From IMG/VR virus record IMGVR_UViG_2698536379_000013: a stretch of DNA of 29,429 nt. One strand, 5' to 3'. The notes below the pieces were generated by a model, which did no database searches, had not been told where the DNA came from, and saw nothing but the letters and a program-made list of their open reading frames with translations. Both the position numbers and the translations under genes were made by a program. Position 1 is the first letter of the stretch; the number at the start of each line of letters is the position of its first letter. Below, piece after piece: positions 7,931 through 29,429 of this stretch. This stretch comes from a virus (taxonomy: Duplodnaviria; Heunggongvirae; Uroviricota; Caudoviricetes).

Positions 7931-7933
7931 AAT

Positions 7934-8696: not shown

Positions 8697-9347
8697 TCAG
8701 CGGCTGTCATTGCGCAGTCTGCGCTCCAGCTGCTGTTTGTCTTTTTTCACGCCACAGCGGGGATCGAGCTGTAACGCATGGTTGAGATGATTAAGGGCGG
8801 AAGCCGGATTACTTTCACTCAGGACAGCGCCAATCGCTTTATGCAGACGCGCCCGTGACTGGTCCGGCATATCCAGACCGTCTGTCAGCTCCAGCGTCTG
8901 CAGCAGCAGATCGACATCAAAGCCGGTAGTGGCAAGCATTGCGCTCTGCGCTGCGTCTGCCATTTCCTCTGCCAGCACGGTCTGCACGTTGCGGTTACCT
9001 AGCGGCATCACCCAGCCATGACGCAGGGCATGACGCCCGATCTCCAGCGCTCCGACATAATCTCCGGCATCAATGCGCCACAGCATCACGTACATCAGCA
9101 CGTCATCCTGTTGAGCGCCTCCGGCAGCCAGGACACCCTCCGCCCAGGCGGCGTATTTCGGCAGCAGCTCCACCTTGATTTCCGCTTTTTTGACCGTGGA
9201 CTGAACGCCCTTGAGACGGCGGCGGTCTTCTGCCAGTTGCAGCAGCATCAGGTCATAGCCCGACGCGTGGCGAACGCTGCCGCCCTCGCGGGCGGCCTGT
9301 TCAGCCTGAACGCGCAGGCGATGCTGCCGTGCGGGACTCAGGCTCAT
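8697..9347 (-). CDS. Terminase endonuclease (small) subunit (P2 gpM-like)
   Basis: 216 aa, ATG start with GGAG SD, in the conserved position between L and N. Confidence 0.8.
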   Translation of the reverse strand: MSLSPARQHRLRVQAEQAAREGGSVRHASGYDLMLLQLAEDRRRLKGVQSTVKKAEIKVELLPKYAAWAEGVLAAGGAQQDDVLMYVMLWRIDAGDYVGALEIGRHALRHGWVMPLGNRNVQTVLAEEMADAAQSAMLATTGFDVDLLLQTLELTDGLDMPDQSRARLHKAIGAVLSESNPASALNHLNHALQLDPRCGVKKDKQQLERRLRNDSR

Positions 9348-9350
9348 GGT

Positions 9351-10409: not shown

Positions 10410-10425
10410 TGGGTTTTATGCTCCA

Positions 10426-11259: not shown

Positions 11260-11337
11260 GAGCCGTGCTCCGTTAGAAAAAACTTACTGGAGCCTTATGG
11301 TTGCGGTGATGGGGGCAGTGAAACAATGCGCGGTATT

Positions 11338-11355
11338 TGTACCGACAACCACACA
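11338..11355. promoter_or_regulatory. TGT-N12-ACA dyad in the O/P divergent intergenic region (candidate Ogr-type late promoter element)
   Basis: TGTaccgacaaccacACA; centre 55.5 bp upstream of the P ATG. Confidence 0.5.
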
Positions 11356-11401
11356 AACCGCAGGCGGGGAAAGCCTTCATTCAAGGCTGTAGGTTTGTGC
11401 C

Positions 11402-13168: not shown

Positions 13169-14202
13169 TGGGAAAGAGTAAGAAGAACCGCGCTGCGGCG
13201 ACGAAACAGATCCAGCTTAAAAGTCAAACTACAGCCGAAGCATTCAGCTTCGGCGATCCCGTTCCTGTTCTGGACCGCCGAGAACTGCTGGATTATGTGG
13301 AATGCGTACAGATGGACCGCTGGTATGAGCCGCCCGTCAGCTTTGACGGACTGGCGCGCACCTTCCGCGCTGCCGTGCATCATAGTTCCCCGATTGCAGT
13401 AAAGTGCAACATTCTGACCAGCACCTACATCCCTCACCCGCTGCTCAGCCAGCAGGCTTTTTCGCGTTTTGTGCAGGACTATCTGGTTTTTGGTAACGCC
13501 TACCTGGAGAAACGCACGAACCGCTTCGGTGAAGTTATCGCCCTTGAGCCTGCACTGGCAAAATACACCCGACGCGGGTTAGACCTGGATACCTACTGGT
13601 TTGTGCAATACGGTATGACAACCCAGCCGTATCAGTTCACGAAAGGCAGCATTTTTCATCTGATGGAACCGGATATTAATCAGGAGATCTACGGCCTGCC
13701 CGGTTATCTTTCTGCCATTCCGTCAGCCCTGCTCAACGAGTCCGCCACGCTGTTCCGTCGCAAGTATTACATTAACGGCAGTCATGCGGGCTTTATCATG
13801 TACATGACCGATGCCGCGCAAAACCAGGAGGATGTGAACAACCTCCGCAATGCGATGAAAAGCGCCAAAGGTCCAGGCAACTTCCGCAACCTGTTTATGT
13901 ACTCGCCTAACGGCAAAAAAGACGGGCTTCAGATCATCCCATTGTCAGAAGTCGCGGCGAAGGATGAGTTTTTGAATATCAAAAATGTCAGCCGCGACGA
14001 CATGATGGCTGCGCACCGCGTGCCGCCGCAAATGATGGGGATTATGCCTAATAATGTTGGAGGGTTTGGGGATGTGGAGAAGGCCAGTCGCGTATTTGTA
14101 CGTAATGAATTAACGCCCTTGCAAAAAAGGCTACAAGAGCTGAACGACTGGCTGGGCGAAGAAGTGATTAAATTTACGCCCTATATTCTTTCAGAAGAAT
14201 AA
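13168..14202 (+). CDS. Portal protein (P2 gpQ-like)
   Basis: ATG 13168 overlaps the P stop (TGATG) with GGAGA SD; 344 aa in the conserved P-Q arrangement. Confidence 0.9.
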   Translation: MGKSKKNRAAATKQIQLKSQTTAEAFSFGDPVPVLDRRELLDYVECVQMDRWYEPPVSFDGLARTFRAAVHHSSPIAVKCNILTSTYIPHPLLSQQAFSRFVQDYLVFGNAYLEKRTNRFGEVIALEPALAKYTRRGLDLDTYWFVQYGMTTQPYQFTKGSIFHLMEPDINQEIYGLPGYLSAIPSALLNESATLFRRKYYINGSHAGFIMYMTDAAQNQEDVNNLRNAMKSAKGPGNFRNLFMYSPNGKKDGLQIIPLSEVAAKDEFLNIKNVSRDDMMAAHRVPPQMMGIMPNNVGGFGDVEKASRVFVRNELTPLQKRLQELNDWLGEEVIKFTPYILSEE

Positions 14203-14210
14203 TTCCGAAC

Positions 14211-14909
14211 TTATTTGTTTCTTCTTTGTTCACGCCTTGTCTTGGCTTCGATAAGGCGTTGAGGTTCAGTGTAAAGCCGTTCTAAAAAAAGATAGGTAAA
14301 ATCTTCAAGATCCTCAGCAGCAGCTTTATCCAAAATACCTTCATGCGCTCCATCATTTCCGTCATCTTTAACGCATTCAGCTAGTTCCCTTAAAGCTTCA
14401 GGCAGTAGATGATTATCAAATAACCACTCCATTCTTAACCCTAGGCTTCTCCTTATTTTTTGCGCAGGCCCTTGCTCCCCATCAGGAAGAAGTCCTTTTG
14501 TGGCATAATCAAGGCAAAGCCTAAACATGGTTGCTGCTGCATTATAACAACCTATAGCCAAACATTTCGCCCCTTCCTCATATGCACTATTGATATGCTC
14601 AGGTAAGAACTCTGGTGGCTCCTCTACTGCTAAGTCTGCCGGTGATATAGGCCTAACAACCTCTGCAACTTCCTTTAAGCCGAATATTCCACTTTCCCAA
14701 TTATAGCCATCTAAAGTTTTATTTTTCGTTAAAGGTCTGCAAAGAAACATTGTCGTTTTATGACACTCTCGGCAAACACAATAGACCTCGTACTCGTATG
14801 TTTTACCCCCGCCCAATGCATTGTAAACCCTAGTGCAATTCAGCCCATTAACATCAAACGCTATTTTTTGTGATCCACATCGTGGACAGTCATCCACTAA
14901 CATAACCAT
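14211..14909 (-). CDS. Hypothetical zinc-ribbon protein (cargo gene between portal gene and cos)
   Basis: 232 aa, ATG with AGGGAGGAG SD. N-terminal Cys cluster CPRCG...CVCRECH; C-terminal alpha-type region with GNDGAH motif, loosely reminiscent of DUF4145-type domains (recall only). AT-richer than flanking genes. Confidence 0.65.
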   Translation of the reverse strand: MVMLVDDCPRCGSQKIAFDVNGLNCTRVYNALGGGKTYEYEVYCVCRECHKTTMFLCRPLTKNKTLDGYNWESGIFGLKEVAEVVRPISPADLAVEEPPEFLPEHINSAYEEGAKCLAIGCYNAAATMFRLCLDYATKGLLPDGEQGPAQKIRRSLGLRMEWLFDNHLLPEALRELAECVKDDGNDGAHEGILDKAAAEDLEDFTYLFLERLYTEPQRLIEAKTRREQRRNK

Positions 14910-15019
14910 GTCAATTACTCCTCCCTATGAAAAAAATGAGTTGAAAAATTGAATATTCACGACTTAAAAAGCTAGCCTATTTAACACCATAATTTCATTA
15001 ATTCAACCATGAGCGCGCG

Positions 15020-15038
15020 CTCGTATCCCCGCCACGCC
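15020..15038 (-). other. Putative cos (cohesive end) site, P2/186-like
   Basis: Minus-strand GGCGTGGCGGGGAtacgag; first 13 nt match the recalled 186 cos overhang GGCGTGGCGGGGAAAGCAT. Adjacent perfect palindrome GAGCGCGCGCTC at 15011-15022. Confidence 0.4.
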
Positions 15039-15082
15039 TGCCCGCTTTATGTAGTGGTTTTCATGCGCCTGCATGACATAAG

Positions 15083-15107
15083 CAAAAGCCCGCCATTCCT
15101 AGCGGGC
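15083..15107 (-). terminator. Rho-independent terminator-like hairpin ending the SOS operon
   Basis: Stem gcccgc/gcgggc (15088-15093 and 15102-15107), 8-nt loop, followed on the minus strand by a T-run (A-run 15084-15087 on plus). Confidence 0.5.
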
Positions 15108-15198
15108 CTCAGCTAAAACGATCCTCAAACGATCATGCGGATTCATGCGGCATAGACATGCACAATCGCCAAAGCGGGCATCGAGACTTTTTGGAAAA

Positions 15199-15810
15199 CT
15201 ACGTAACCACAGTTAATGTGTGCATCCTGTCTCGAATTGCATCACACGTCTCATCAAAAAGCTTGGTGATGGTTGTACGGTTCAACTCTGCCTCTTTCCA
15301 ATAATTTTGCCAGTCAAATTCTGGATCGCCATGCTGAAACGATATTGACTCTGAAAGGCATTCCTTCCGGAAACGGTCCAAGATTATATAAACCTCTGGT
15401 GAGATGAACGGTTTGTTAGACTCAACACTTGTAACAAAAGTATTAAATGCATCGAAAAAAACTTTCAACCTTCTAAATTTTCTCTCTTCAAATGGTTCGT
15501 TGGGGTCAAAATGATCCAGCGCAGGCCTCAGCTTAAGCACGCTTTCTCTGGTTTCAAACATCGAATTCCAAATGAGACTATATGCTGATAACTCCTTATC
15601 AAAATACGCTTTCGTTACATAAACAGAATTGTCTAACTTAGCCTTTATTCTTTCATTAGTTGCACTCAGTTGTGATTGAAATTCAGCAATATCTTTGTTT
15701 AGCCGCGACTTATATCTTTCTAAATAAACTTTCCCGATCCAAACAAATATGCCAGATGCAACAAAAGACACCCCACCCAACGAAGCCAGAATTTTAAAGA
15801 CTAAATCCAT
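15199..15810 (-). CDS. Hypothetical membrane-anchored protein (SOS-operon cargo)
   Basis: 203 aa, ATG with AGGTGGGGG SD; N-terminal TM helix (ILASLGGVSFVASGIFVWIG) then soluble domain; AT-rich; last gene before the terminator. Confidence 0.65.
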   Translation of the reverse strand: MDLVFKILASLGGVSFVASGIFVWIGKVYLERYKSRLNKDIAEFQSQLSATNERIKAKLDNSVYVTKAYFDKELSAYSLIWNSMFETRESVLKLRPALDHFDPNEPFEERKFRRLKVFFDAFNTFVTSVESNKPFISPEVYIILDRFRKECLSESISFQHGDPEFDWQNYWKEAELNRTTITKLFDETCDAIRDRMHTLTVVT

Positions 15811-15858
15811 TGCGCCCCCACCTGCAAAAATAGTATTCCATTATAAGCTAATACATTT

Positions 15859-16119
15859 TTAATCAAACAGGGAATAATTCGCGTCAACCTCATCACTTCT
15901 CTGCTCTACCCTGGTGACTTCCATCAAAAACTCCAGGCCGTCATATAGCGAAACGGGGAATTCCAGCTCAAGCCAGAAGCAGTCTTCATAGGTGCGGCCC
16001 AACCAAAAACCTCCGCCACACTCCTTTGGGCGTTGAAAGAAGACCCAGCCGCCAGGGGTAAACCGTTCCAGCACCTGGCCCCGATAAATAATCTGGTGAT
16101 TACTGTCTTTTTTACCCAT
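15859..16119 (-). CDS. Hypothetical small protein
   Basis: 86 aa from ATG 16119 (MGKKDSNHQ...) with weak GAGG SD; the track version starts at TTG 16170. No recognisable motif. Confidence 0.5.
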   Translation of the reverse strand: MGKKDSNHQIIYRGQVLERFTPGGWVFFQRPKECGGGFWLGRTYEDCFWLELEFPVSLYDGLEFLMEVTRVEQRSDEVDANYSLFD

Positions 16120-16192
16120 GGCTAACGCCTCGCTACTCTCGTTGTTCAACCTTGCTGACGTCAGAATCAAGTTCTTACATCAGGAACGTTCC

Positions 16193-16426
16193 TTAGTGCA
16201 GCCAGCTGTCGTCTTCCCAAACCTGCTGCATAATTTCCATCACCCGCTTTTTGTCTTCATCAAGCTTTAAGCCACTCAGCTCAACGCCGTTTGCCGACCC
16301 TTTACGGATGCGGATAGCTGTCTTGGGATAGATGGGTTGCAGGTTGCGGTAAAGCTCTGACTCCAGAGCGTCCAGGGTAGACTGGCTAATCTTCTGCTCT
16401 TTATCGATCATTATTTCAATGCGCAT
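16193..16426 (-). CDS. DinI-like domain protein (possibly the C-terminal part of a Tum-like antirepressor)
   Basis: From ATG 16426 (MRIEIMIDK...) with GAGGTGA SD 5 nt upstream; resembles the DinI family (MRIEV...LSxELxRR...VSVR...QRISEILQETWE) by recall. Confidence 0.65.
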   Translation of the reverse strand: MRIEIMIDKEQKISQSTLDALESELYRNLQPIYPKTAIRIRKGSANGVELSGLKLDEDKKRVMEIMQQVWEDDSWLH

Positions 16427-16436
16427 AAAAGTCACC

Positions 16437-16625
16437 TCAGCTGATGACATCCATTGAGCGGTTGTATTCGTGGGTTCTGATTTTTGCCATGAGTTCATCT
16501 GTCAGTTCAGAAACCCACTGCAGGGCCAGCCCCTTCTCTTCATCACTACACTCACTAGCCGCTACAAGCTTAAGAAAAAAATCAATGCGCTGGAGCTTCA
16601 AAGACTCCAAAAAATAGTCCTGCAT
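16437..16625 (-). CDS. Tum-like SOS-inducible antirepressor, N-terminal ORF (frame differs from the DinI-like ORF)
   Basis: ATG 16625 with perfect AGGAGG SD; LexA box 43 bp upstream; 62-aa ORF overlapping the DinI-like ORF by 62 nt in another frame. Confidence 0.5.
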   Translation of the reverse strand: MQDYFLESLKLQRIDFFLKLVAASECSDEEKGLALQWVSELTDELMAKIRTHEYNRSMDVIS

Positions 16626-16667
16626 CTTTCCTCCTATGACACCAAAGCAACACTGTATACATAACCA

Positions 16668-16683
16668 CTGTTTATATTTACAG
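16668..16683. promoter_or_regulatory. LexA (SOS) box upstream of the tum-like operon
   Basis: caCTGTttatatttACAGta fits CTGT-N8-ACAG with an AT-rich spacer; a half-site CTGTATAC lies at 16653-16660. Confidence 0.7.
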
Positions 16684-16777
16684 TATATAATAATCTTACT
16701 GATGTAAAACGTTTTTTTACGCTCATCAGCCTGATATGCCTGGTATTATTAAGAGCACGAATTGTTAACCTGCGTAA

Positions 16778-19192
16778 TTAATACAGGTTCCGCCATTTAT
16801 CATCCTCCTGCAGACGCTGGTTCCGATAGAAGATACGCAGGCCTGCTCCTGACGGAATACTGCCGCCGCGAAGGAGTAAATCGACCTCTTTCTCGCTGCC
16901 ATCAAATCCTCTGGACTTCAGTTCATAGACGAGCTGCTGTCGCTGATGATCTGTAATTCGCTGTTTGTAGTCTTTACGCCGTTTCGGTTTAACCAGGCGT
17001 AACCTTGCTGCCAGTTCCCGGCGCTCTTTTTTGCTCATACTGTGCAGGTAATCGTGCAATTCCTTGTCATCCATGCGGGTGATTTCCGTTCTGGTATCCC
17101 CATCAGCTGATTTGTCTTTCCCTTGTTGGTTCAAATTTTCAGCAAGGGGACAGTTATTGCCACGAGTCCAAGGGGCGCAAGCGCCCTGGTCGGCTGCCGC
17201 CTCCTGAACGTCAACGGCCTTACGAACCATTTTCCACTTCACCGCATGAGTGCAGATCTTGCCCTCTGCAATGGGTGACCAGATGCCATAAATACGAATG
17301 CCGTGATCGCCATAGGCGGTCGGCTCTTCGTTGATTTCATAAGCGGTTCTGATCAGGTGATATTTGCGGGGAACCAGTACGCCGCCCTGCTTCATGATGT
17401 AGGTGGCAAAACAACCAGCATCAGCAGCAGCCAGGATTGCATCAAGGCGCGGGTTATCCAGTACCGGCGCACCTGCTTTTTTGTCCCCCTGTTGCCTTGC
17501 CGCCTGACCAGCCAGCAATCGCAGTTCACGGTAAGCCTGACGCCCCGGAATGCCAAAGAAGCGGAATTGCTGAACACGATGCAGAGACGCCCAGGCATTA
17601 ACGTATTCAGCATTATCACGCAGGGATTTCCCCGTTTCCTTGCTGATCTCGCCAGTCAGACCACGCCCGTCAATGTTCTTACTGATGTATTTCGCGATGT
17701 AGCTTGTTGGCGTACCTTTGCGCGGGTTAATCAACTCAGACTTAAAGCGCGGCCCAGTGTTATTGCCCAGCTCCTCGCGGTCTTCACGGATGGCAAACTT
17801 ACGCAGTAATGCAGTGATGGCGCGGCGGTCTTTTTTGCGCATAAAACACAACAGGTGCCAGTGAACTGTACCGTCATGATGCGGCTCAGCCACCCGCACG
17901 CCATACCAGCGCAATCCGGCTTTGTGCATCGCCTTACGAAATGCAGCAAACATGCCGACCAGATAATCACTACTTTGTCTTACCGTCGCATTTGTCCAGG
18001 TTGGGTTGGGCCTGCCGTTATTTAGCGTGGAATGGAAACGTGACGGACAGGTGATGGTGTAGAAAACGGCGCAGTCACCGCGCATTTCCGCGATAAGCTC
18101 CAGACCTTTAACACAGGCCATCATCTCATTGCGGCGATGCGCAGGGTTGCTGCTGCTGGCGTTTACCACATCCTCCATGTCCAGCGTGTCGCCGTCTTCG
18201 TTCACCAGTTCATGAGAACGGAAAAACTCCAGCGACTTACGGCGCTGCTCACGTTTATGCATCACGGCTTCATAGCTGACATAAGGAGATGCTTTTTTGC
18301 TAACCAGGCAGACAGCGCGCAACTGCTCCTCCCGCCATTCGCAACGCATCTTCCATAATTTCCGATACCACCAGTCGGCGCACAACATACGCGCCAGCGA
18401 ACCCGGAATGAGTTCATAGGGCACGGGTTTACGGCGGTTTCTTTTCCGGCGGAGTTGCTCAAACGCAGGTGGGATGACATCCAGACGCAGGGTTTCCGCC
18501 GCCACCCTTTCCCATGTCTTGCGGATTTCTTCTGGCTTAACGTCATCGGTGGCATACAAATCGCCACAAGCTGCATCAAGGCACATGCTCATATGCGCAG
18601 CAACAAGGGTGGACAGGCGTTTCACCTGATCCTGACTCATTTCAGGCAGAATCAGCAGGCCGTCCAGCCCTTCATGGCTTGCCATAAAGCGAAAAGAAGT
18701 GGATAGCTGACTGTCGCGTACATGCTCCAGCCGTTCCAGACATGGCTTAATCGTCTCACGTAAATAGCGGGAATAAGCCTTTGGCCTGCCCTGGCTGCTG
18801 AAGTATTCAATACGTTGCATCAGCGGCTTGCTGATATGGGAAGGCTGGGCGTTGACGTCCGCCAGAATGACCATATCCGGATTAAAACGCTGCTGCTCAT
18901 GCGCCAGCTTTGCCCGACTAATGAGCTTATCCTGTTCCATTTCGCGCTGGACAGGATCACGGGATTCATTAAAGAAATAACGCTCCCAGACCTGATCACT
19001 CAGTGCCTCGCGGCGCAGTTGTTCCTGCTCGTTATCGGCAGCGTACAGAGTGATCAGGTTTGAAAGCGCAGAAACCGGCGCAACTTCCGCCGGGTCCAGA
19101 TAAGGGTTAATGGCCTTTTTCGGGCTGTTCCATGAGAATGCTGCGGCGAACTCGTTAAAGCCGCTGCAGTTGTTCATATCAGCATGGCTCAT
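16778..19192 (-). CDS. Replication initiation endonuclease (P2 gpA-like rolling-circle initiator)
   Basis: Contains the conserved active-site tyrosine motif [13 protein letters not shown] and [11 protein letters not shown]. Start set to ATG 19192, which overlaps the Dam stop (ATGA); the track start at 19219 is TTG. Confidence 0.9.
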
Positions 19193-20046
19193 GCACGCAC
19201 TCCGTACACGACGGAACAATCCACGCCACGCGAAGGATCAAATCCTACCCAGCAGCGCGGCCCGGAAACAGCGATGATTTCTGTTGCAGATTTACTCTCA
19301 CCAGCTGCCACGCCGATGCTGCGTTTTGCCTTGATGTAGTGGTGAGTAAAATTGCGATACAGCGAACGGATCAGGGATGTGTCACTGTTAGAAACAATGA
19401 CCGGATGTCCTTCTGATGACCGATGTTCAAGAACGGATGCCAGGTGATACTGGTCATCTTCAGTGAAGCCGTCAGTGTGATAGCCGGAAAACATACCGTC
19501 ATAAGGCGGATCGCAATACACCACATCCCCCGCCTTCAACATCGCCAGCGTTTCATCAAAGCTGGCGCAGATAAACGTTGCCCGCTGGGCTTTCTCTGCA
19601 AATGCGCGAATTTCTTTTTCAGGGAAATACGGATTTTTATAATTACCGTACGGAATGTTGAAATGCCCGCTCTTGTTATAGCGACATAACCCACGGTAAC
19701 CATGACGATTGAGATACAGGAAATATACCGCTTTCATGAAATCAGTAATTTCAGTGGAGTAATTAAACTCCTGCCTTATGTTGTAATAAGCCACCTCCCT
19801 GTTTGCTTCCTCAAATAAAGCTCTGGCACGAGATATAAACGCCTCGCAATCAGCAGCAACCTTTTTATAGAGGTTGATTAAATCAGGATTAATATCCGCA
19901 ACAAGATAGCTGGGGTAATCCGTCTCCATCATCACAGCACAGGAACCCGCGAAAGGTTCAACCAGTCGCGGGCCAGCAGGAAGATGTTTTTTCAGTTCGG
20001 ACATAATGGCGGTTTTATTTCCCGCCCATTTCAGGATGGTACTCAT
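19189..20046 (-). CDS. dam: DNA adenine methyltransferase (Dam-like, orphan)
   Basis: From ATG 20046 ([11 protein letters not shown]...) with GGAGG SD; FAGSCAV SAM-binding and DPPY catalytic motifs; no adjacent restriction gene. Confidence 0.9.
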
Positions 20047-20270
20047 ACAACACCTCCGTTGTAATGTTTGCCTTTCAGCTCTGCGATTTCCTGACAGGTA
20101 ATGCAAAGCTGCACTCCAGGAATGGCGCGGCGTCGTGCTGGCGGAATTGGCGCTTCACATTCAATACAAAGCACACGAGACACGCCCGGTGTTTTGGCAC
20201 GGGCAGCACGGATATAGCGCTGGCGTTCTTCTTCAACGCGCTGCTGTACGAGATCCATTGCATCAGCCAT
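20043..20270 (-). CDS. TraR/DksA-type C4 zinc-finger protein
   Basis: 75 aa with CIECEAPI...CITCQ Cys4 pattern; stop overlaps the Dam ATG. Confidence 0.7.
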   Translation of the reverse strand: MADAMDLVQQRVEEERQRYIRAARAKTPGVSRVLCIECEAPIPPARRRAIPGVQLCITCQEIAELKGKHYNGGVV

Positions 20271-20503
20271 TAGTGGATCTCCTGCGCTTCGTTCTGGATT
20301 GCTTCAGCAGTCACACGCAGCAGTTCTGCCGCTTCCACGTGGTTTAGCTGACGGGATGAGATATGACACGCCAGGCTATCAAGGCGAGCTGCCATTGCTT
20401 CAGCCCTTGCCCGGCGTTCTTCCAGACGAGCCTCTGTCAGTAAAATATTAAGCCCTGCATCATCCGGTCCGGTTTTAGTCGTGAGGATTTCAATATTACG
20501 CAT
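20270..20503 (-). CDS. Hypothetical early-region protein
   Basis: 77 aa from ATG 20503 with AGGAG SD 8 nt upstream; stop overlaps the next ATG by 1 nt. Confidence 0.55.
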   Translation of the reverse strand: MRNIEILTTKTGPDDAGLNILLTEARLEERRARAEAMAARLDSLACHISSRQLNHVEAAELLRVTAEAIQNEAQEIH

Positions 20504-20570
20504 AATCAATTCTCCTGAATTTAGATAAAGGGATGCCCGGCGGGTTTACGCCATTAATTTCATTAGTTGG

Positions 20571-20912
20571 TTAATTCGGCATGGTTAGCCGTCTGGGAAA
20601 TAAGCTCACCACCGCACGAAAATGATTCATTGCTTTAATCAGCTCCCGCTTTTCGTCAGTGGTCAGCTCATTAATGCTGATGCTATGACGTTCAGCTGGA
20701 ATTTTTGCCATAAAGAATATAGCAGCCAGTGCCCGTTTATTTTGTTCATTATTGATATCCCGTGGATCACGCATATCTTTAATAAACCGCTCAAGCTCTG
20801 ACTCAATATTCAGGCCAAAAACTTTCGCCCTTAATTCCGCAATATGATTAAGTCCATTCAGGCGTTCACCGGGGCTTAATGGAACAGTCGCCGCAGCGCC
20901 ATTAATTGCCAT
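20571..20912 (-). CDS. Hypothetical early-region protein
   Basis: 113 aa, ATG start; in the early operon between the CII-proximal genes and the replication region. Confidence 0.5.
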   Translation of the reverse strand: MAINGAAATVPLSPGERLNGLNHIAELRAKVFGLNIESELERFIKDMRDPRDINNEQNKRALAAIFFMAKIPAERHSISINELTTDEKRELIKAMNHFRAVVSLFPRRLTMPN

Positions 20913-20934
20913 AATTCATATCCCCAAAACGCAA

Positions 20935-21159
20935 CTATCGTTCTTTGTTCTTACGGTAACGTTCAAGAGGAGATACATTTTTTCGTATCGTCTCTTTAAC
21001 CTGCTCTCCCCGTAAAAACGTCCCATCCTTTAGCGTGAAAAAGTAACTGCCATCGCCCGACAACGACGGATAACAACAGAGCAAATCATCTTCAGGTACT
21101 GAATAACTCTCCCCTCTGTAACGAAACTGATAAACCACTTCACTTTCCGCTGCATACAT
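20935..21159 (-). CDS. Hypothetical small protein
   Basis: 74 aa, ATG with GGAG SD 9 nt upstream. Confidence 0.5.
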   Translation of the reverse strand: MYAAESEVVYQFRYRGESYSVPEDDLLCCYPSLSGDGSYFFTLKDGTFLRGEQVKETIRKNVSPLERYRKNKER

Positions 21160-21326
21160 TTTGACTTTCTCCGTTTCCTCGTGGTCAATTCAGACAGCAA
21201 TTCATCTTGTGAATGACATGGATGCCAGCGTTTACCATCCTCACCCATGATCCAGCCGTGACCGTAGTGCATTGCCGGACTTTGTTTTACCAGCAGCGAT
21301 GCAAATGATGGTTCTTTCGTCAGCAT
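21030..21326 (-). CDS. Hypothetical ORF downstream of cII (overlaps the 74-aa ORF; may be a frame artefact)
   Basis: ATG 21326 with GAGGTG SD; N-terminal two-thirds look protein-like, C-terminal part is Cys/Arg-rich and overlaps the neighbouring ORF by 130 nt. Confidence 0.3.
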   Translation of the reverse strand: MLTKEPSFASLLVKQSPAMHYGHGWIMGEDGKRWHPCHSQDELLSELTTRKRRKSKCMQRKVKWFISFVTEGRVIQYLKMICSVVIRRCRAMAVTFSR

Positions 21327-21333
21327 AAGCACC

Positions 21334-21843
21334 TCACAGCAATCCGAATGAAGCACCGAGGCCAGTCACGGTATCAACTGCACTCGCCATCGCAGGGTTA
21401 GCCTGTAAACGGGCCTGCAATGAAACAGCAGCCAGCGCCATCAGTCGTGTTACAGAGTTAATGCTGCTGATAGCATCACGACGACCTGCACTGGTTTTTA
21501 CATCGCCAGATACCGCACCTGCAGCAACACGCCCGATCTCTGCGGTTGCACTCATGACGTAATGCGGCAGTTTCTCTTTTGCTACCTCATTAATCGGTAC
21601 ACATGGCAGGCAGTGAATCTGTGCCAGAAAACCATCTACCAGCGTTGAATCTTCAGTCAGATCGGTAAGCAGCCAGATTTCTGATGCGGTGAGCTGATGC
21701 GGTTGATCTGGGTTGAGTTTGTTTCGCAGTGTCTGAACATTCATTCCTGCACGTTCTGCCAGCTTCGCCATATTGTGACGTAGTGCAAAAGCTCTACAGG
21801 CTTCATCAAAATGCGGATGTTTGGAAATCTTGTAATCAAACAT
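21334..21843 (-). CDS. CII-like lysogeny establishment activator (186 CII-type)
   Basis: 169 aa, ATG start; strongly resembles recalled 186 CII (MFDYKISKHPHFDEACRAFALRHNMAKLAERAGMNVQTLRNKLNP...LVDGFLAQIHCLPC). Confidence 0.8.
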   Translation of the reverse strand: MFDYKISKHPHFDEACRAFALRHNMAKLAERAGMNVQTLRNKLNPDQPHQLTASEIWLLTDLTEDSTLVDGFLAQIHCLPCVPINEVAKEKLPHYVMSATAEIGRVAAGAVSGDVKTSAGRRDAISSINSVTRLMALAAVSLQARLQANPAMASAVDTVTGLGASFGLL

Positions 21844-21875
21844 GCTGCCCCCTTAGAAAGTTCTCATAATTGAAC

Positions 21876-22124
21876 TTAGTCACCAACGATGACATTAAAG
21901 TTGAAATTGGATTGGCCCATGTTTTTCCTGACTTGTTCCTTTTTGTACTCAAGGTAACGTATACATACTCTGTCTTTCGGTTTTTCTTTTCTTTCCAAGA
22001 ATTTAGCGAGTTTTCCATTATGAATCATTTGATATACCGAACCGCGAGAGCGGCCTTCCCATTCCGCGAACTCAGCTGGTGTCGCCATCACTTTTGGTAC
22101 ACGAATTGAAATGTCGTTGCTCAT
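21876..22124 (-). CDS. Apl/Cox-like excisionase-repressor (HTH)
   Basis: From ATG 22124 (MSNDISIRVPKVMATPAEFAEWEGRSRGSVYQMIHNGKL...), divergent from the repressor gene in the 186 apl position. Confidence 0.65.
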   Translation of the reverse strand: MSNDISIRVPKVMATPAEFAEWEGRSRGSVYQMIHNGKLAKFLERKEKPKDRVCIRYLEYKKEQVRKNMGQSNFNFNVIVGD

Positions 22125-22241
22125 AGTGCAGTATCTCTTAGTTTGTAATCGTATCATCTCGTTTTATGTGGTTTGGTTTTGCTTTTCAAACCATGAATGG
22201 ATATTAAGATCTCATTTTATATGCGTCAGGGGGGTTTGATT
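22125..22241. promoter_or_regulatory. Lysis-lysogeny switch intergenic region (apl/cI promoters and operators)
   Basis: 117-bp AT-rich region between divergent apl-like and cI-like genes; candidate plus-strand promoter TTGCTT(22179-22184)-17-TATTAA(22202-22207). Confidence 0.45.
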
Positions 22242-22874
22242 ATGAGTCTAATCAAGGGTGGAAACGATAGTGGGGGGCGTGATGCCATCAACAGGCTGAT
22301 AAAAGCCTACAATTTCAGCTCACGCCAACAACTCTGCGAACACTTAAAAGTATCTAAAAGCACCATGGCAAACAGATACTTAAGAGATAGCTTTCCAGCA
22401 GAGTGGGTAATTCAATGTGCTCTAGAAACCGGGATCTCGCTTCTTTGGTTGGCAACCGGACAGGGTGATATGTATGCAGATAACTGTGACTCAAACATTC
22501 TCAAAAATGATAATGACGTCACAATTAGACCACTTTCTAAAATCGTAGCTCCCAGTATCAAATACACAGAATTAAGAAATGGTGAACTTCAATCATATGA
22601 CGAAATTTTATTAGATAGCAGGTTGGTTGAGGGCGATTCGTCAAACTATCTATTCATACAAACGACAACAGAAAGTTTTATTGTTGATGTATCTGTAAAA
22701 CAGATCAGTAATGGCTCTTGGCTTGTTGATATTGATGGAGTGAAAAGCATCGTAAAAGTAGCTCGAATTCCCGGAAATAAGCTTGTTGTTCATCAGGAAG
22801 AAACAACCTTTGAATGTGCAGTTGATGACGTAGCCGTTGTAGGGCGTGTGGTAAAAGTGATTAAGAGCATCTAA
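22242..22874 (+). CDS. Immunity repressor CI (186 CI-type, no obvious S24 peptidase motif)
   Basis: HTH segment SRQQLCEHLKVSKSTMANRYL; start set to ATG 22242 (alternatives 22197 and 22221); stop immediately precedes the int ATG. Confidence 0.7.
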   Translation: MSLIKGGNDSGGRDAINRLIKAYNFSSRQQLCEHLKVSKSTMANRYLRDSFPAEWVIQCALETGISLLWLATGQGDMYADNCDSNILKNDNDVTIRPLSKIVAPSIKYTELRNGELQSYDEILLDSRLVEGDSSNYLFIQTTTESFIVDVSVKQISNGSWLVDIDGVKSIVKVARIPGNKLVVHQEETTFECAVDDVAVVGRVVKVIKSI

Positions 22875-22876
22875 TA

Positions 22877-23902
22877 ATGACGATCAGAAAACAGCCGAAC
22901 GGAAAGTGGTTGTGTGAATGCTACCCAAACGGGCGAGATGGCAAACGCGTACGTAAACAATTTGCGACAAAAGGCGAAGCCATTGCGTTTGAACGTTTCA
23001 CAATGGAAGAAGTGAACAAAAAACCGTGGCTGGGGGAAAAGGAAGATCGGCGACATTTGTCAGAAGTGATTGAACAATGGTACTCACTTTACGGGCAGAC
23101 GCTTGCTGACCCCAAACGCCTGATGGCGAAACTTAAAATTATCTGTAATGGTCTGGGCGATCCCATCGCTTCAGAACTGACCGCCGGTGATTTTACGAAA
23201 TACCGGGAAGCACGGCTAAAGGGTGAAGTGCGAAATGAAGATGGCGCGCTTATGTCGCCTGTTAAGCCCCGCACGGTAAATCTTGAACAACGCAACCTGT
23301 CATCGGTTTTTGGCACACTGAAAAAGCTGGGACACTGGTCAGCACCAAACCCACTGGCAGGACTTCCTACATTTAAAATTGCTGAAGGTGAGCTGGCCTT
23401 TCTTTCCATGGACGAAATCAAGCGCCTGTTGGATGCCTGCGCAGATTCTCAAAGCCCCAGCCTGCTGATGATTGCAAAAATATGCCTGGCCACCGGAGCA
23501 CGCTGGAGTGAAGCAGAAAATCTGCAGGGACACCAGTTGTCAAAATACCGCATCACATACACCAAGACGAAGGGCAAGAAAAACCGTACCGTGCCAATAT
23601 CTCAGGATCTGTATGACGAACTTCCCAAAAATAGAGGGAAATTATTCACACCATGCAGAAAAGCCTTTGAGCGGGCAGTAAAGCGGGCCGGTATCGAACT
23701 GCCAGAAGGACAATGCACCCACGTGCTACGCCATACATTCGCCAGCCACTTTATGATGAATGGCGGTAATATACTTGTGCTTAAAGAAATTTTAGGCCAT
23801 ACCGATATAAAAATGACCATGATTTATGCTCATTTCGCACCAGAGCATCTTGAAGATGCGGTGACAAAAAATCCTTTAGCCACTCTTTTTTCTACTAATT
23901 AA
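22877..23902 (+). CDS. int: Tyrosine integrase (P2/186-type)
   Basis: 341 aa with C-terminal catalytic region HVLRHTFASHF...LGHTDIKMTMIYAHF; adjacent to the repressor gene and upstream of the att core. Confidence 0.95.
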   Translation: MTIRKQPNGKWLCECYPNGRDGKRVRKQFATKGEAIAFERFTMEEVNKKPWLGEKEDRRHLSEVIEQWYSLYGQTLADPKRLMAKLKIICNGLGDPIASELTAGDFTKYREARLKGEVRNEDGALMSPVKPRTVNLEQRNLSSVFGTLKKLGHWSAPNPLAGLPTFKIAEGELAFLSMDEIKRLLDACADSQSPSLLMIAKICLATGARWSEAENLQGHQLSKYRITYTKTKGKKNRTVPISQDLYDELPKNRGKLFTPCRKAFERAVKRAGIELPEGQCTHVLRHTFASHFMMNGGNILVLKEILGHTDIKMTMIYAHFAPEHLEDAVTKNPLATLFSTN

Positions 23903-23914
23903 AAGGTAATTATT

Positions 23915-24811
23915 ATGACAGAGCTCTACCTTTTAGATCGAAACATAATTGATCTAATGAATAAGCACAACAATTCTTCTAATATCCCAGAACCTAATAG
24001 AATTGATATGCTTAATAAATTAAAAGCATTAGATATCAAAGGAAATACTTTCTCACCTTTACTATCAATAATAGAAGGAAAAACCCATAAAAAACTTGAC
24101 AGTAACGGCAAATTAGAAATCATAAAAACACCTAATAAAAAAATAAGAAAATTAATTATAGAGGATAGTGAAATTGTAAAATCATTTATTAAAGAAGCTA
24201 ACACTGATTATGATTTCCTAACATCCAATGTAAATAAACTATCAAAAATAATATATGAAAAAGAAACTGACAGATTAATAGATAAAAAAACAAAATTCCT
24301 TGATAAGCTACAAGAAAAAATAGGGGAAACAAAGAAAGTAGAACAACGAGAGAATACATATTATGAGTTTAAAGAGATAGTAAACGAGTTTAATGAATTT
24401 AAAAACCAACCGTTTACAATTGTAGCTCTGATGTATATCTTTGGAAGCCAACGAGCTGAGAAGATATTAAAATTTAAAAGTAAAAATTTTTCATCTTATA
24501 ACCCAATTGCTGATTTTAATCATTACAAAACCACTATCCAACTTAGATTTGATGATAGATTAAAAGATAATGCAAACATACATTTTATTTCACTTGATTC
24601 AGATATTGAATTTATACAGCAACTTTTTCATCCTAATAATGCTAAAATTAGTAGTTCAACAAACTACACTAATACTTTAGCTATTGAGTGGACAATTAAT
24701 AAAAATTTTCTACAGAGTGAAATACCGGAAACAAAGGGCGAACTCAACAATCAAGAATTGTTTTACTCATGCTTTCAAGACTTGTATGGGTACGATGCCC
24801 GCGTGTCTTAA
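23915..24811 (+). CDS. Hypothetical protein (AT-rich cargo between int and att); N-terminus resembles a PIN-domain first strand
   Basis: 298 aa, ATG 12 nt after the int stop with AAGG SD. N-terminal MTELYLLDRNIIDLM resembles the h-h-D-T-N-h-h motif that opens PIN nucleases (inference from a single motif). Very AT-rich, Lys/Asn-rich. Confidence 0.6.
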   Translation: MTELYLLDRNIIDLMNKHNNSSNIPEPNRIDMLNKLKALDIKGNTFSPLLSIIEGKTHKKLDSNGKLEIIKTPNKKIRKLIIEDSEIVKSFIKEANTDYDFLTSNVNKLSKIIYEKETDRLIDKKTKFLDKLQEKIGETKKVEQRENTYYEFKEIVNEFNEFKNQPFTIVALMYIFGSQRAEKILKFKSKNFSSYNPIADFNHYKTTIQLRFDDRLKDNANIHFISLDSDIEFIQQLFHPNNAKISSSTNYTNTLAIEWTINKNFLQSEIPETKGELNNQELFYSCFQDLYGYDARVS

Positions 24812-24961
24812 CAACAGGTGATAAATAGCAGACTTAATACCTACAATGTGGCGGCATTTTGGCGGCAGAACATTAAAAAAGCGTAAAACGGACAAACACA
24901 AAATAACAATAACAGACTGATTTTAAACGAAACTTAATGTTTTTGTTATGGTAAAAATGGT

Positions 24962-25006
24962 ATGTAGGAATTTCGGACGCGGGTTCAACTCCCGCCAGCT
25001 CCACCA
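24962..25006 (+). ncRNA. ssrA: ssrA (tmRNA) 3-prime terminal fragment, about 45 nt: prophage attachment core
   Basis: ATGTAGGAATTTCGGACGCGGGTTCAACTCCCGCCAGCTCCACCA matches the recalled 3-prime end of enterobacterial tmRNA; upstream sequence is unrelated AT-rich DNA, so this is a partial copy. Confidence 0.75.
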
Positions 25007-25074: not shown

Positions 25075-25171
25075 ACGTCTATTGTCGTCCAGTGAGAATT
25101 GCTGAGAACTACGAGTTATGGCACCCTGAATGAGACCCACTAAGAAGGGTCCAAAAACCGAGGGTCCCAAA

Positions 25172-26401
25172 ATGGCAAAAATCGCTAAGAAGCTCACTGA
25201 CACTGAAATCAAAAGCACCAAGCCAGCCGACAAAGAAATCAACTTGTTTGACGGAGATGGTTTGATACTACGAATCGCTCCCCTCTCGAAAGGAGGAAAG
25301 AAGAATTGGTATTTCAGGTATGCAGTGCCAGTGAGTAAAAAAAGAACCAAAATGAGCCTTGGGACCTATCCTCACCTTACACTGGCAAGAGCCAGAGCCT
25401 TACGTGATGAATATCTTTCCTTTCTGGCAAATGGTGTTGATCCACAAATCCATAACAACGATAAGGCGAAGGCATTAAAGAGTGCTACTGAGCACACTCT
25501 CCAAGCCGTAGCGCGGAAATGGTTAGATGAGAAGGTAAAGACATCAGGTATCTCACAAGACCATGCAGCAGACATCTGGCGCAGCTTAGAGAGAAATGTC
25601 TTTCCTGGTCTGGGTAATGTCCCTATCAATGAGATCCGGCCTAAGCTCTTAAAACAACACCTTGATCCTATTAAGCAACGAGGCGTATTGGAAACTCTAC
25701 GCCGTATCATTTCACGTCTGAATGAAATCTTCAGGTGGGCAGCTACTGAAGAACTTATTGAGTTCAACCCGGCTGACAACCTTGGTCAAAGATTCAGTAA
25801 ACCAAAAAAGCAAAATATGCCTGCCCTTCCCCCAAGCGAATTGCCAAGGTTTATGGAATCTTTGACGAATGCGTCAATCCGGTTGGAAACACGTATGCTA
25901 ATTGAATGGCAATTGTTGACATGGGTTCGTCCGGGTGAAGCCGTTCGCGCAAGATGGTCTGATATTGATACAACCAACAGCATTTGGAACATTCCTGCTG
26001 ATTTCATGAAAATGAAAAAGCCTCACAAAGTTCCTTTGAGTAAAGAAGCTTTGCGCATCCTTGAATTAATGAAATCAATAAGTGGGCATAGAGAATGGGT
26101 TTTCCCCAGCATTAAAGCGCCTCTTAATCATATGCATGAACAAACAGCCAACGCAGCTATCATCCGAATGGGGTTCGGAGGCGAGCTTGTAGCTCACGGT
26201 ATGCGTTCTATTGCGCGAACAGCGGCAGAGGAGTCTGGTAAATTCAGAGCTGAAGTTCTTGAGGCAGCGCTTGCCCACTCGAAAAAAGATGAAATTATCG
26301 CAGCATACAATCGTGCAGAATATCTGATAGAGCGACAGAGTTTGATGCAATGGTGGAGTGATTACGTTCAAGCTCAAAGATCAAATGCTCTGGTAGCCTA
26401 A
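25172..26401 (+). CDS. intA: Tyrosine integrase, IntA (CP4-57)-like
   Basis: From ATG 25172 (MAKIAKKLTDTEIK...) with GAGGG SD; resembles recalled E. coli IntA (LTDTEIK, DIWRSLERNVFP, ALETLRR, AALAH, MQWW). Confidence 0.85.
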   Translation: MAKIAKKLTDTEIKSTKPADKEINLFDGDGLILRIAPLSKGGKKNWYFRYAVPVSKKRTKMSLGTYPHLTLARARALRDEYLSFLANGVDPQIHNNDKAKALKSATEHTLQAVARKWLDEKVKTSGISQDHAADIWRSLERNVFPGLGNVPINEIRPKLLKQHLDPIKQRGVLETLRRIISRLNEIFRWAATEELIEFNPADNLGQRFSKPKKQNMPALPPSELPRFMESLTNASIRLETRMLIEWQLLTWVRPGEAVRARWSDIDTTNSIWNIPADFMKMKKPHKVPLSKEALRILELMKSISGHREWVFPSIKAPLNHMHEQTANAAIIRMGFGGELVAHGMRSIARTAAEESGKFRAEVLEAALAHSKKDEIIAAYNRAEYLIERQSLMQWWSDYVQAQRSNALVA

Positions 26402-26439: not shown

Positions 26440-26856
26440 ATGGAAACCCTATTCAAAGTTTTTGAAAAATTTAGTTCCAGACCACTTTTTTTTATTTTTT
26501 TCGGACTCTCACTTTGTGAATTTTTTCAGAAACAATCTGTTCTGATGAATCCATCAGCAGATAACATCGCGAAATTATTCGCAGCCATGATATTAGTTGT
26601 TTTTTTTACTTGGGGATTTGAATGGCTAATCTTTAAATTCAATGTAAACCTTGAACCTCATGATCAAGGCGATATTGGACCAACAATTGGAACGGCTGCT
26701 TTAGCTGTATACTTAGTTTATGCCTTTCATTTTCTCAGTGAAAATCCTGAAGCATTAAATTTAAAGTTATTAACTAACTCTGGTTTTATATACAGCACAA
26801 CTCTATTATTATTCTCATTAGAAAGTATGAAGCTTAGAAGACTTAAACAAAAGTAA
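26440..26856 (+). CDS. Hypothetical small multi-pass membrane protein
   Basis: 138 aa with several hydrophobic segments (LFFIFFGLSL, AAMILVVFFTWGF, ALAVYLVYAF, LLLFSL); AT-rich; convergent with the 603-aa ORF. Confidence 0.45.
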   Translation: METLFKVFEKFSSRPLFFIFFGLSLCEFFQKQSVLMNPSADNIAKLFAAMILVVFFTWGFEWLIFKFNVNLEPHDQGDIGPTIGTAALAVYLVYAFHFLSENPEALNLKLLTNSGFIYSTTLLLFSLESMKLRRLKQK

Positions 26857-28654
26857 ACAACATCATTGCGAGATAAATACAAAAGAGGTATGGCGGTAAA
26901 TCACCATACCTAAAACATAATAATTTTGGTAGTATCGGTGATACATAATCCACACAAATATTGGAGCGATACTGAGACGCTATAACCTGATATCTTTCTC
27001 CATAACCAATTCTAAGTTCAGATTTAAGATGCGTTTTTTTCTTTCCCTTTTTCTTTTGGGGTTTATCGTGATGTGAATAATATATCTTTGGTTTCAGATT
27101 AAATCCTTCAACAACTTCCTTCCAAGTTTGAACCGCTAATAAAAATTGAATAGAATTGATGTCAATTAATTTTTTAGCTTTTGTAGTAGTTGAGATCCAT
27201 AAAACCACATCAGTAATTGTCTCTTCAAATTTTACTACTCCTCTTACTATAGTTTGAATTGTGGTTTTTGACTGTTCAATATTATAAATTAGATCATGCG
27301 GTTTATCTGATATCTTTACAGCAATAATCTCTCCATTTTTATAAAGATCTGCAACTTCAACATTGTAGTCCTTGCCATTATCACGTAAGGATGGTATTTT
27401 TTTTAGCTGGCGATCTAGAAGTATATAACCTTTCTCATCAGACATCTTTTCATTAAAATAATATTCTCTATATTCTAATTTGTCTTTAGAAGTTCCTTCT
27501 GCGATTTGTTTTATTTTTTCAGCTTGCCATACTTTGAAGTCGTCTTCCTTAAGAGCATCTTTAACCTCAAATTTTATACTGGCTAAAGAAGTAGACAAAT
27601 ACTTCATAAAAGCAGAGTTAAATCGACTCCATCCTCCCCTCTTAAGGAAGAAGTGCTCGCTGCCCTCGCTATAAGTAATGCTCAATATTTCTTTTAACGA
27701 GGCTGTATGACCACTGTTATTTTCATTAGTTATCTTAACAAAAACTTTATTGACATCTTTTATGTTGTTATTTTTTATGAATTTCTTTACATCTGCTATT
27801 TTTATGTCATTAATTTTATCTGATGATTGAAGATACTTTCCACTCCCCTCAACTTTTGTGTGCAATTTAAAAAATGTCAAAGAATTATTAATTACAATAG
27901 AGGCACCAAAAGATTGAATCTCATCAATAATAACTTTTGCATCATCTGTAATGATCGATTGAAGTAGACAATTATCAAGCTCATCTATCTTTGACTCGTC
28001 AGTGATTTTTTCCGATTTAGGAAATTCGATTTTCTCTTTGGTTGCCAACGAAGAATCAATATCATTGAAAACATCGACTAATGCAGTAGGAGCACCATCC
28101 AAACTTAGCTGAATTGAATCAGAAAAAGTTATATTATTACATCCCCACTTGTCAGTTTCTTTGGCTTTTGTTTTGAGATGCTCGATGGATTCGCCAGGAA
28201 AATATGCTCCTTGAACAAACTGTGAGTATGAGGATGCCTCCTGACTCTTTCCCCCACAAAAGAATCTGCTTTTCTTGAGTAAAATATTTTCATCATTAGC
28301 TATACGCATTGCCACATTCAGCCCAAAGTCTGCTTCAATAAACTTGCTGAGATAAAAATGTGATTTACCAAGACTGATAAGATAGCAATTCTCAGGGTCC
28401 TTTTCTTTAAATCCTATTAGCAGGCCAAAATAGAATATATTATGAGGCTTTTCAATTTCTTCATTGAAGAAATCACTAAAAACATCCCACCACCATACTT
28501 CATTTCCTTTTAATTTATCAGAAAAATAAAATTTGAGTTGATAAGATTGATGTAGAATAGTTTTTTGTTCGACAAGCCCTTCTTTAATGATTTTTTTTGT
28601 CAATTCTGGAAGACTCTTATATGGCATTCTATATATGTTATAGCTGACTGACAT
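26843..28654 (-). CDS. Large hypothetical protein (603 aa), no recognisable catalytic motif
   Basis: Long ATG-initiated ORF with AGAGG SD-like sequence upstream; AT-rich, Lys/Asn/Ile-rich; no Walker A, no CxxxCxxC; the last ~50 codons look like hydrophobic read-through. Confidence 0.65.
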   Translation of the reverse strand: MSVSYNIYRMPYKSLPELTKKIIKEGLVEQKTILHQSYQLKFYFSDKLKGNEVWWWDVFSDFFNEEIEKPHNIFYFGLLIGFKEKDPENCYLISLGKSHFYLSKFIEADFGLNVAMRIANDENILLKKSRFFCGGKSQEASSYSQFVQGAYFPGESIEHLKTKAKETDKWGCNNITFSDSIQLSLDGAPTALVDVFNDIDSSLATKEKIEFPKSEKITDESKIDELDNCLLQSIITDDAKVIIDEIQSFGASIVINNSLTFFKLHTKVEGSGKYLQSSDKINDIKIADVKKFIKNNNIKDVNKVFVKITNENNSGHTASLKEILSITYSEGSEHFFLKRGGWSRFNSAFMKYLSTSLASIKFEVKDALKEDDFKVWQAEKIKQIAEGTSKDKLEYREYYFNEKMSDEKGYILLDRQLKKIPSLRDNGKDYNVEVADLYKNGEIIAVKISDKPHDLIYNIEQSKTTIQTIVRGVVKFEETITDVVLWISTTTKAKKLIDINSIQFLLAVQTWKEVVEGFNLKPKIYYSHHDKPQKKKGKKKTHLKSELRIGYGERYQVIASQYRSNICVDYVSPILPKLLCFRYGDLPPYLFCIYLAMMLFTFV

Positions 28655-28722
28655 TTAATCGCCTCTGAAATATATATTCATACAAGTTAATGTTAAAGTG
28701 AAAAATTTTTAATATACTTAAT

Positions 28723-29400
28723 TTATCGAGCTAAAATACTTAATGAATTTAACAACTGTATATCCAAGGTTTCACTTGAGGGCACTGGTAGTCCGTTCGC
28801 AATGCGATAATTTTTTATTGACTGCCTTGTGGAAGGCCCCATTATGCCGTCAATATTCCCGTTGTAATAATCTTTGTCCAGCAAAGCGAATTGAACCCGC
28901 ATGATTAAGCGCTTACGCTTCTCTGTACCAGAAGTCAGCCCATTACTTGCACGGTTAGCTTCTGTAGTTCCAACAGAATTCGTAGTAGTAGAGTTGTTAT
29001 TGTCGTTAGAACGAAGCGAACGCACAGAGGAAGAGGACGATGAGGGACTTGTTCCTGAACTTGAAGACCCAGATGAACTTGGTGAGCTGTATGTTTTTGG
29101 ATAATAGGGAGTGCTGCCACCATAGTACCCGCCACCTGATGATGAACGGTGAGAACTATGGCTCCGATGGGAGCTATGACTGCGATGCCCTGCAATGTAG
29201 AATGGAACTTCGGTGTTAAGTGGGGCTATCACTAAATCATGTTCATTAAGAGTCATACCAGGCAAATCACTTGCCCATACAGAATTATTGAGTGCCAAAA
29301 ACCCCGGAAGTAGAGCAGCAAAATGAACCGCCCCGGTTTTCCTGGAGAGTGTTTTATCTGTGAACTCAGGCTGCCAGATCATCGTTTCTGATGGAAGCAT
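28723..29400 (-). CDS. Secreted His-Xaa-Ser repeat protein with C-terminal peptidoglycan-binding-like domain (possibly HxsA-like)
   Basis: Signal-peptide-like segment AVHFAALLPGFLALNNSVWA; five tandem His-Xaa-Ser triplets HRSHSSHRSHSSHRS (nt 29143-29187); Ser-rich linker; C-terminal DGIMGPSTRQSIKNYRIANGLPV resembles PG_binding_1. True start may lie upstream of the window. Confidence 0.65.
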   Translation of the reverse strand: MLPSETMIWQPEFTDKTLSRKTGAVHFAALLPGFLALNNSVWASDLPGMTLNEHDLVIAPLNTEVPFYIAGHRSHSSHRSHSSHRSSSGGGYYGGSTPYYPKTYSSPSSSGSSSSGTSPSSSSSSVRSLRSNDNNNSTTTNSVGTTEANRASNGLTSGTEKRKRLIMRVQFALLDKDYYNGNIDGIMGPSTRQSIKNYRIANGLPVPSSETLDIQLLNSLSILAR

Positions 29401-29429
29401 AATAAGCTTTTTCTGCTTCTGCCGGAGGG

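Follow-up and report, generated by a model that had tools for sequence, protein, structure and literature searches.

The window, i.e., the whole stretch of 29,429 nucleotides analyzed here, contains a P2/186-like prophage that sits at ssrA in tandem with an hxs island, with a 43-nt repeat of the ssrA end between the two (Table 1). Complete tRNA or tmRNA genes were not found within the window, which holds only this 3′ piece of ssrA. On the other side of the repeat lie the P4-type integrase of the island, a convergent hydrophobic ORF, a gene of the DUF6119/TIGR04141 family and, at the window edge, an ORF containing hxsA that runs into the end of an IS629 element.

Table 1. Features located in the window (positions on the 29,429-nt stretch; residues are those of the 225-aa ORF unless stated otherwise)
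Feature	Position	Strand	Description and evidence
P2/186-like prophage	1..24963		tail fibre, major head, terminase, portal, gpA-type replication nickase, Dam-type methyltransferase, CI/CII-type regulators, integrase
298-aa ORF between P2-type integrase and att site	23915..24811	plus	0 matches in Pfam, NCBIfam, PHROGs and PADLOC
Last 43 nt of ssrA (tmRNA)	24964..25006	minus	att repeat bounding the hxs island; found by blastn with the ssrA region of DEC5E as query
P4-type tyrosine integrase of the hxs island	25130..26401	plus	PRK09692, 441.5 bits (NCBIfam cut-off 434); Pfam Arm-DNA-bind_3, Phage_int_M, Phage_integrase
Convergent hydrophobic ORF, 138 aa	26440..26856	plus	no family match
DUF6119/TIGR04141 gene, immediately downstream of hxsA	26843..28654	minus	603 aa, i.e., a 543-aa protein and a read-through tail of ~60 aa
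hxsA-containing ORF	28723..29400	minus	225 aa
Native hxsA part	28723..29323	minus	last base of codon 5 to stop codon, native residues 6-204; homology to intact O55:H7 hxsA starts here
PG_binding_1, C-terminal peptidoglycan-binding domain	28783..28896	minus	Pfam PF01471, residues 169-206
Ser/Thr/Gly/Asn-rich low-complexity linker	28906..29142	minus	residues ~87-165; composition
SHRSS motif, spanning the last HxS repeat	29140..29154	minus	residues 83-87; site of the published +8 Da modification
Five tandem His-Xaa-Ser repeats, HRSHSSHRSHSSHRS	29143..29187	minus	residues 72-86
Surviving part of the signal peptide, FAALLPGFLALNNSVWA	29272..29322	minus	hydrophobic core and VWA cleavage region, residues 27-43
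Right terminal 106 nt of IS629 (IS3 family)	29324..29429	minus	inverted-repeat end ...CCGGGGCGGTTCA; carries the end of transposase orfB

Judged by its sequence, the 225-aa ORF is a true HxsA, i.e., it belongs to a known and experimentally characterized family. TIGR03979, the curated NCBIfam equivalog model for the His-Xaa-Ser repeat protein HxsA, scored 151.9 bits against a cut-off of 121.65 and aligned profile positions 6–189 of 190 with ORF residues 27–223. This bears out the HxsA-like family guess of a preliminary description of the locus, which had proposed a search with HxsA models. Over the shared part the protein was 98% identical to HxsA from complete hxsDBCA operons, and hxsA is also the name that RefSeq already gives to the identical gene. 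The domain plan had likewise been read correctly: the five consecutive His-Xaa-Ser triplets, the long Ser-rich low-complexity linker and the PG_binding_1-like C-terminus were all recovered. Five consecutive triplets were never reached in 200,000 shuffles of the ORF protein, and three were reached in six of them. Repeat block and SHRSS motif were identical in 29 of 29 relatives examined. The linker, with 23 serines in 75 residues, differs in length between aligned HxsA relatives. The score for PF01471 was marginal (23.6 bits, cut-off 23); the region is conserved in all relatives compared.

The preliminary description had presented HxsA, after the TIGRFAM descriptions, as a family without a stated role. 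Its function was published in 2026, when Li et al. (Nat Commun, PMC13128918) cloned an E. coli hxsD-hxsB-hxsC-hxsA operon (MEM) and described it as an antiphage system, HXS. The system acted against 110 of 113 coliphages; infection was not abortive and adsorption was not blocked. DNA entry was prolonged from about 10 min to 30–50 min, and T7 escape mutations fell in the ejectosome proteins gp15 and gp16 (PMC13128918). Maturation of HxsA is carried out by HxsB and HxsC, two cytoplasmic radical SAM/SPASM enzymes, acting with the small protein HxsD; it comprises N-terminal processing and a radical SAM (rSAM)-dependent +8 Da modification, which MS/MS placed on SHRSS of the last HxS repeat. Matured HxsA is exported and then anchored to peptidoglycan by its C-terminal domain; it binds DNA in the periplasm, and its basic HxS array hinders passage of phage DNA through this compartment (PMC13128918). 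All four genes are needed for defense, which was also lost upon replacement of any one HxS repeat by AAA, upon swapping of the signal peptide, i.e., residues 1–22, as well as upon mutation of the peptidoglycan-binding domain. Residues 23–47 are necessary for activity, linker residues 114–139 are dispensable, and a truncated HxsA that was exported but produced in the absence of the maturases had no activity. In 99.6% of HXS systems the genes follow the D-B-C-A order (PMC13128918).

The window copy follows the plan of the published HxsA (TIGR03979), i.e., signal-peptide core, pro-region, five HxS repeats ending in SHRSS, Ser-rich linker and peptidoglycan-binding domain. It comes from the same species and the same type of mobile island, and sister strains carry the canonical hxsD-B-C-A order. 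It differs from the published gene in that IS629 forms its 5′ end, with native start and MKKFN lost, in that the maturase genes are not adjacent within the window, and in that the O55:H7 allele to which it belongs lacks the residues ASDSSTG. This last difference is shared by the window and strain USDA5905. The seven residues would stand just after the signal-peptide cleavage site (~29270, minus strand) and are kept by all 27 other relatives, WASDSSTGASDLPG being shortened to WASDLPG in the O55:H7 allele. ASD codons flank the deletion as a direct repeat. The deletion falls within residues 23–47, the stretch found necessary for defense (PMC13128918).

The TIGR03979 match starts exactly at ORF residue 27. 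The right end of IS629 supplies ORF residues 1–25 plus two bases of codon 26, i.e., the ATG of the ORF (29400) and its first 25–26 codons come from the insertion sequence. Only the terminal 106 nt of the element lie in the window. They are identical to positions 9001-9106 of the extracted DEC5E locus (L054), and the full element there is 1,310 bp long, has matching inverted repeats (TGAACCGCCCCGG...) and is 100% identical to the annotated IS629 in GenBank JQ347801.1. In a megablast search against complete E. coli genomes, the ~100 nt at the window edge matched 25,464 places in 6,457 records; the rest of the hxsA stretch gave matches to a limited number of genomes, from O55:H7 and its relatives, and these matches began at query base 103–106, i.e., window positions 29324–29327. 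In a protein-based scan, ORF residues 1–26 likewise had numerous matches within single E. coli and Shigella genomes. The range 28723–29429, which had initially been read as one secreted-protein gene, hence includes 106 nt that are IS629 and not hxsA.

Intact relatives start hxsA with ATG AAA AAA TTT AAT TTT GCT... (MKKFNFAALLPGFLALNNSVWA), and their native N-terminus reads MKKFNFAALLPGF...; all 29 of 29 aligned relatives begin with MKK(F/I)NFAALLPGFLALNN(S/Y)VWA. The junction alignment placed IS629 inside codon 5 of hxsA, with the sequence through the second base of this codon replaced. The ORF continues in frame into the element and carries MLPSETMIWQPEFTDKTLSRKTGAVH in place of MKKFN. Of the native signal peptide (residues 1–22, MKKFNFAALLPGFLALNNSVWA), core and cleavage region are present, and start codon and MKKFN n-region are replaced by IS629-encoded residues, which put R and K immediately before the hydrophobic core. 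The signal-peptide-like N-terminus noted in the preliminary description thus stands in part: its hydrophobic core and cleavage region are native, its residues 1–25 are read from IS629. No Shine-Dalgarno-like sequence was found before either in-frame ATG within IS629. In intact relatives the hxsC stop codon overlaps the hxsA start codon as ATGA, which implies translational coupling; this overlap is lost in the window. The exact fusion protein is encoded in contig CYAH01000040.1 (GCA_001284785.1), whose end lies within the IS repeat, 34 nt upstream of the ORF. We considered the contig-end junction as an assembly artefact and rejected this, because the closed genome of DEC5E has the same junction.

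In intact relatives, the radical SAM proteins HxsB and HxsC and the small HxsD are encoded immediately upstream of hxsA, as the described co-occurrence of these families had implied. Among 28 loci from other species, hxsC directly preceded hxsA in 27, and 25 had the complete D-B-C set; the others comprise two loci truncated at contig ends and an orphan fragment from a Klebsiella plasmid. The partners in relatives scored above the NCBIfam equivalog cut-offs, with 94 for HxsD (cut-off 50), 562 for HxsB (370) and 403.9 for HxsC (267.9). E. coli O55:H7 CB9615, USDA5905 and an ETEC strain show the arrangement hxsD-hxsB-hxsC-hxsA-DUF6119, followed by the convergent 138-aa ORF, the P4-type integrase and ssrA. 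In the window, hxsD-hxsB-hxsC do not directly precede hxsA: their place upstream is taken by the IS629 end, where the contig also terminates. The expectation that partner genes lie just beyond position 29429 therefore failed, since the contig ends inside IS629. Nor does the 603-aa downstream gene make the context unusual, as had been suspected from its not being a radical SAM protein, because in the canonical D-B-C-A order no radical SAM gene is expected downstream of hxsA.

Of 5,426 complete E. coli genomes, 153 contained hxsDBC. In several complete genomes of the species, hxsB or hxsC is interrupted by IS elements (IS3, IS2, ISSen4, ISVsa5 and others). Moreover, hxsC is frameshifted in CB9615 and the DUF6119 gene is frameshifted in both CB9615 and USDA5905, signs of locus decay in sister strains.

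E. coli O55:H7 DEC5E is the only closed genome with the same IS629-hxsA junction, which is identical to the base. Its gene order is ypjA - IS629 - hxsA. IS629 normally makes a target duplication of 3–4 bp (PMC3271280); the flanks of the DEC5E element are TTA and TTT, i.e., such a duplication is missing. A search with the hxsC 3′ end at ≥99% identity gave no copy in DEC5E, with 13 records matching at that level. We conclude that hxsDBC are deleted in DEC5E and that the deletion was mediated by IS629. By analogy with DEC5E and its same junction, hxsDBC are probably deleted in the genome of the window also. The two genomes differ at ssrA, where the window has the P2-like prophage between island and ssrA and DEC5E does not; identity with DEC5E ends at the repeat 24964..25006, at which the prophage starts. 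A closed E. coli genome combining P2-like prophage, island and IS arrangement was not found.

From these data we conclude that the window carries the HXS antiphage effector gene hxsA in a form truncated by IS629 that is most likely a non-functional remnant. The gene is carried on the ssrA-integrated island of an E. coli of O55:H7 type. With IS629 inside codon 5, the native start, the MKKFN n-region and the coupling to hxsC are missing, and the 225-aa ORF is a fusion starting inside IS629. HXS would have been inactivated in this way, with hxsA left behind and presumably without function. That this copy is most likely inactive follows from the published need for all four genes and for the native signal peptide (PMC13128918). 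Intact signal-peptide core and cleavage site count against inactivity. The fusion protein, if made, might be exported, as judged from these elements, and its expression by read-through from the transposase gene is possible.

One might instead envisage a simple IS629 insertion with hxsDBC kept 1.3 kb upstream; the fusion would then be expressed by read-through or from an outward IS promoter, be exported and provide some defense. We regard this as improbable. Hydrophobic core, cleavage site, HxS array and peptidoglycan-binding domain are indeed all intact, IS629 normally duplicates its 3–4 bp target without causing a deletion (PMC3271280), and the genome of the window differs from DEC5E elsewhere. 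However, the junction equals that of DEC5E base for base, and there the far side is ypjA without target duplication. The same junction suggests shared ancestry subsequent to the deletion. Also, the translational coupling to hxsC is lost, a ribosome-binding site is not visible, and signal-peptide replacement abolished the published activity (PMC13128918). Even if hxsDBC were kept, the maturase genes would be at best 1.3 kb from hxsA, across IS629.

An intact, functional hxsA with its radical SAM partners just past the window edge is very hard to reconcile with the junction. The family match is full length except for the first residues, and sister O55:H7 strains have intact operons with the partners directly upstream, but the 106 nt at the edge are IS629 and not hxsC, the native ATG and codons 1–5 are missing, and DEC5E, as the only closed genome sharing the identical junction, has lost hxsDBC. 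A generic envelope or peptidoglycan-binding protein of low complexity, without relation to Hxs, to which the marginal PG_binding_1 score (23.6 versus 23) and the largely low-complexity sequence might point, can practically be dismissed given the score above the curated HxsA equivalog cut-off, the 98% identity to hxsA of complete hxsDBCA operons and the absence of a comparable HxS array from 200,000 shuffles.

The truncated remnant adds no new kind of system, as both the hxsA gene and the HXS system are already known. For genome surveys, the protein annotated in this lineage, at 225 aa (or 219 aa), is a fusion of IS and gene sequence and should be counted as disrupted when functional HXS systems are tallied. 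The window copy and the IS-interrupted hxsB and hxsC genes of other E. coli together suggest that insertion sequences have disabled HXS repeatedly, and such recurrent inactivation could bear on the cost of carrying HXS. The local features that stand out are the IS629 truncation, the O55:H7 ASDSSTG deletion and the locus decay in sister strains; the recurrent DUF6119 neighbor is the sole lead with some novelty.

Among named protein families and systems, HxsA2 (NF038296) and HxsA3 (NF038309) have a short HxS repeat stretch in common with the window protein and gave weak local matches. It is not a member of either family, with scores of 24.6 for HxsA2 (cut-off 48) and 18.4 for HxsA3 (cut-off 65); both are short repeat proteins that lack the linker and peptidoglycan-binding architecture. 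The HxsB and HxsC of relatives show distant similarity to rSAM/SPASM maturases of RiPP-type systems (PapB, anaerobic sulfatase maturase, SCIFF maturase), in which the substrate is likewise ribosomally made and carries a short repeated motif. In contrast to these systems, HxsA is a wall-anchored effector of ~20 kDa and not a small secreted peptide, and the rSAM enzymes are not encoded in the window. Superinfection exclusion by Imm and Sp of phage T4 acts at the same step, i.e., DNA entry is blocked at the envelope (comparison from PMC13128918), but Imm and Sp are unrelated, phage-encoded proteins of narrow spectrum that involve no rSAM maturation. PADLOC 2.0 contained no model for HxsA, HxsD or DUF6119, and HxsB and HxsC gave only weak viperin-like rSAM matches.

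The 603-aa ORF downstream of hxsA matched PF19614 with 95.1 bits (cut-off 27) and TIGR04141 with 76.6 bits (cut-off 35), and it has a promoter-like site of its own at 28696..28669. Near its 3′ end (~27030..27040, minus strand) a poly-A tract counts seven residues (A7) in the window and in DEC5E, and eight (A8) in Klebsiella, ETEC and CB9615. Going from A8 to A7 changes the frame and gives rise to the ~60-aa tail that overlaps the convergent 138-aa ORF; the A7 run may reflect either a genuine mutation or an error in homopolymer sequencing. Of 23 loci from other species, 17 had a DUF6119 gene directly after hxsA and on the same strand. The DUF6119 proteins beside hxsA fall into three types with 19–43% mutual identity, compared with 70–100% for the hxs genes. 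In loci without DUF6119 the slot is filled by AAA, OLD-like or KAP-type ATPases. Stand-alone DUF6119 homologues of 42–47% identity, with no hxs nearby, were found in Pseudomonas, Acinetobacter, Chromobacterium and Aeromonas. A 90-aa gene upstream of the stand-alone Aeromonas homologue was considered as a relic of hxsD and discarded, as it gave no match.

Matches of DUF6119 to nuclease-like folds were weak. Residues E433, D436 and V446-K447 were invariant in 39 homologues, in agreement with such a fold. A Foldseek search against the PDB returned nothing significant; a profile search against PDB sequences returned designed repeat proteins and proteasome subunits, which we rejected as spurious matches. 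The DUF6119 protein might be a companion defense module with a PD-(D/E)xK-like nuclease domain that was repeatedly recruited beside HXS in Enterobacterales, a reading we consider rather doubtful; as such, it would be a possible second line against DNA that has passed the periplasmic block. A functional link is weakened because the four-gene HXS cassette works alone (PMC13128918), hxsDBCA occurs alone in a P2 prophage and DUF6119 occurs as a stand-alone gene. DUF6119 is a frequent, non-obligatory neighbor of hxsA, and it is probably an independent nuclease-type defense-island gene that often travels with hxs.

The prophage-borne cassette was found in E. coli ETEC1730 (NZ_CP122832.1, positions 4501..7898 of the extracted locus L065), where a complete hxsDBCA without DUF6119 lies between ogr and a gpD-like gene of a P2-like prophage, i.e., HXS is also carried as prophage cargo. 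The plasmid contig of Klebsiella michiganensis (L028, 10001..10387) carries the orphan 3′ hxsA fragment, which covers residues 97–225 and has no hxsDBC. A metagenome bin labelled Ureibacillus (L020) contains an Enterobacterales-type hxs operon of ~82% identity; this operon is probably a binning contaminant.

The 138-aa ORF of the island is conserved beside DUF6119 in the same island of Klebsiella, Raoultella and Kluyvera, and the P4-type integrase adjoins ssrA in DEC5E, USDA5905 and ETEC. CB9615 carries a lambdoid prophage at the ssrA position that the P2/186-like prophage occupies here. Within the latter, the 298-aa ORF has a position typical of prophage cargo or defense genes.
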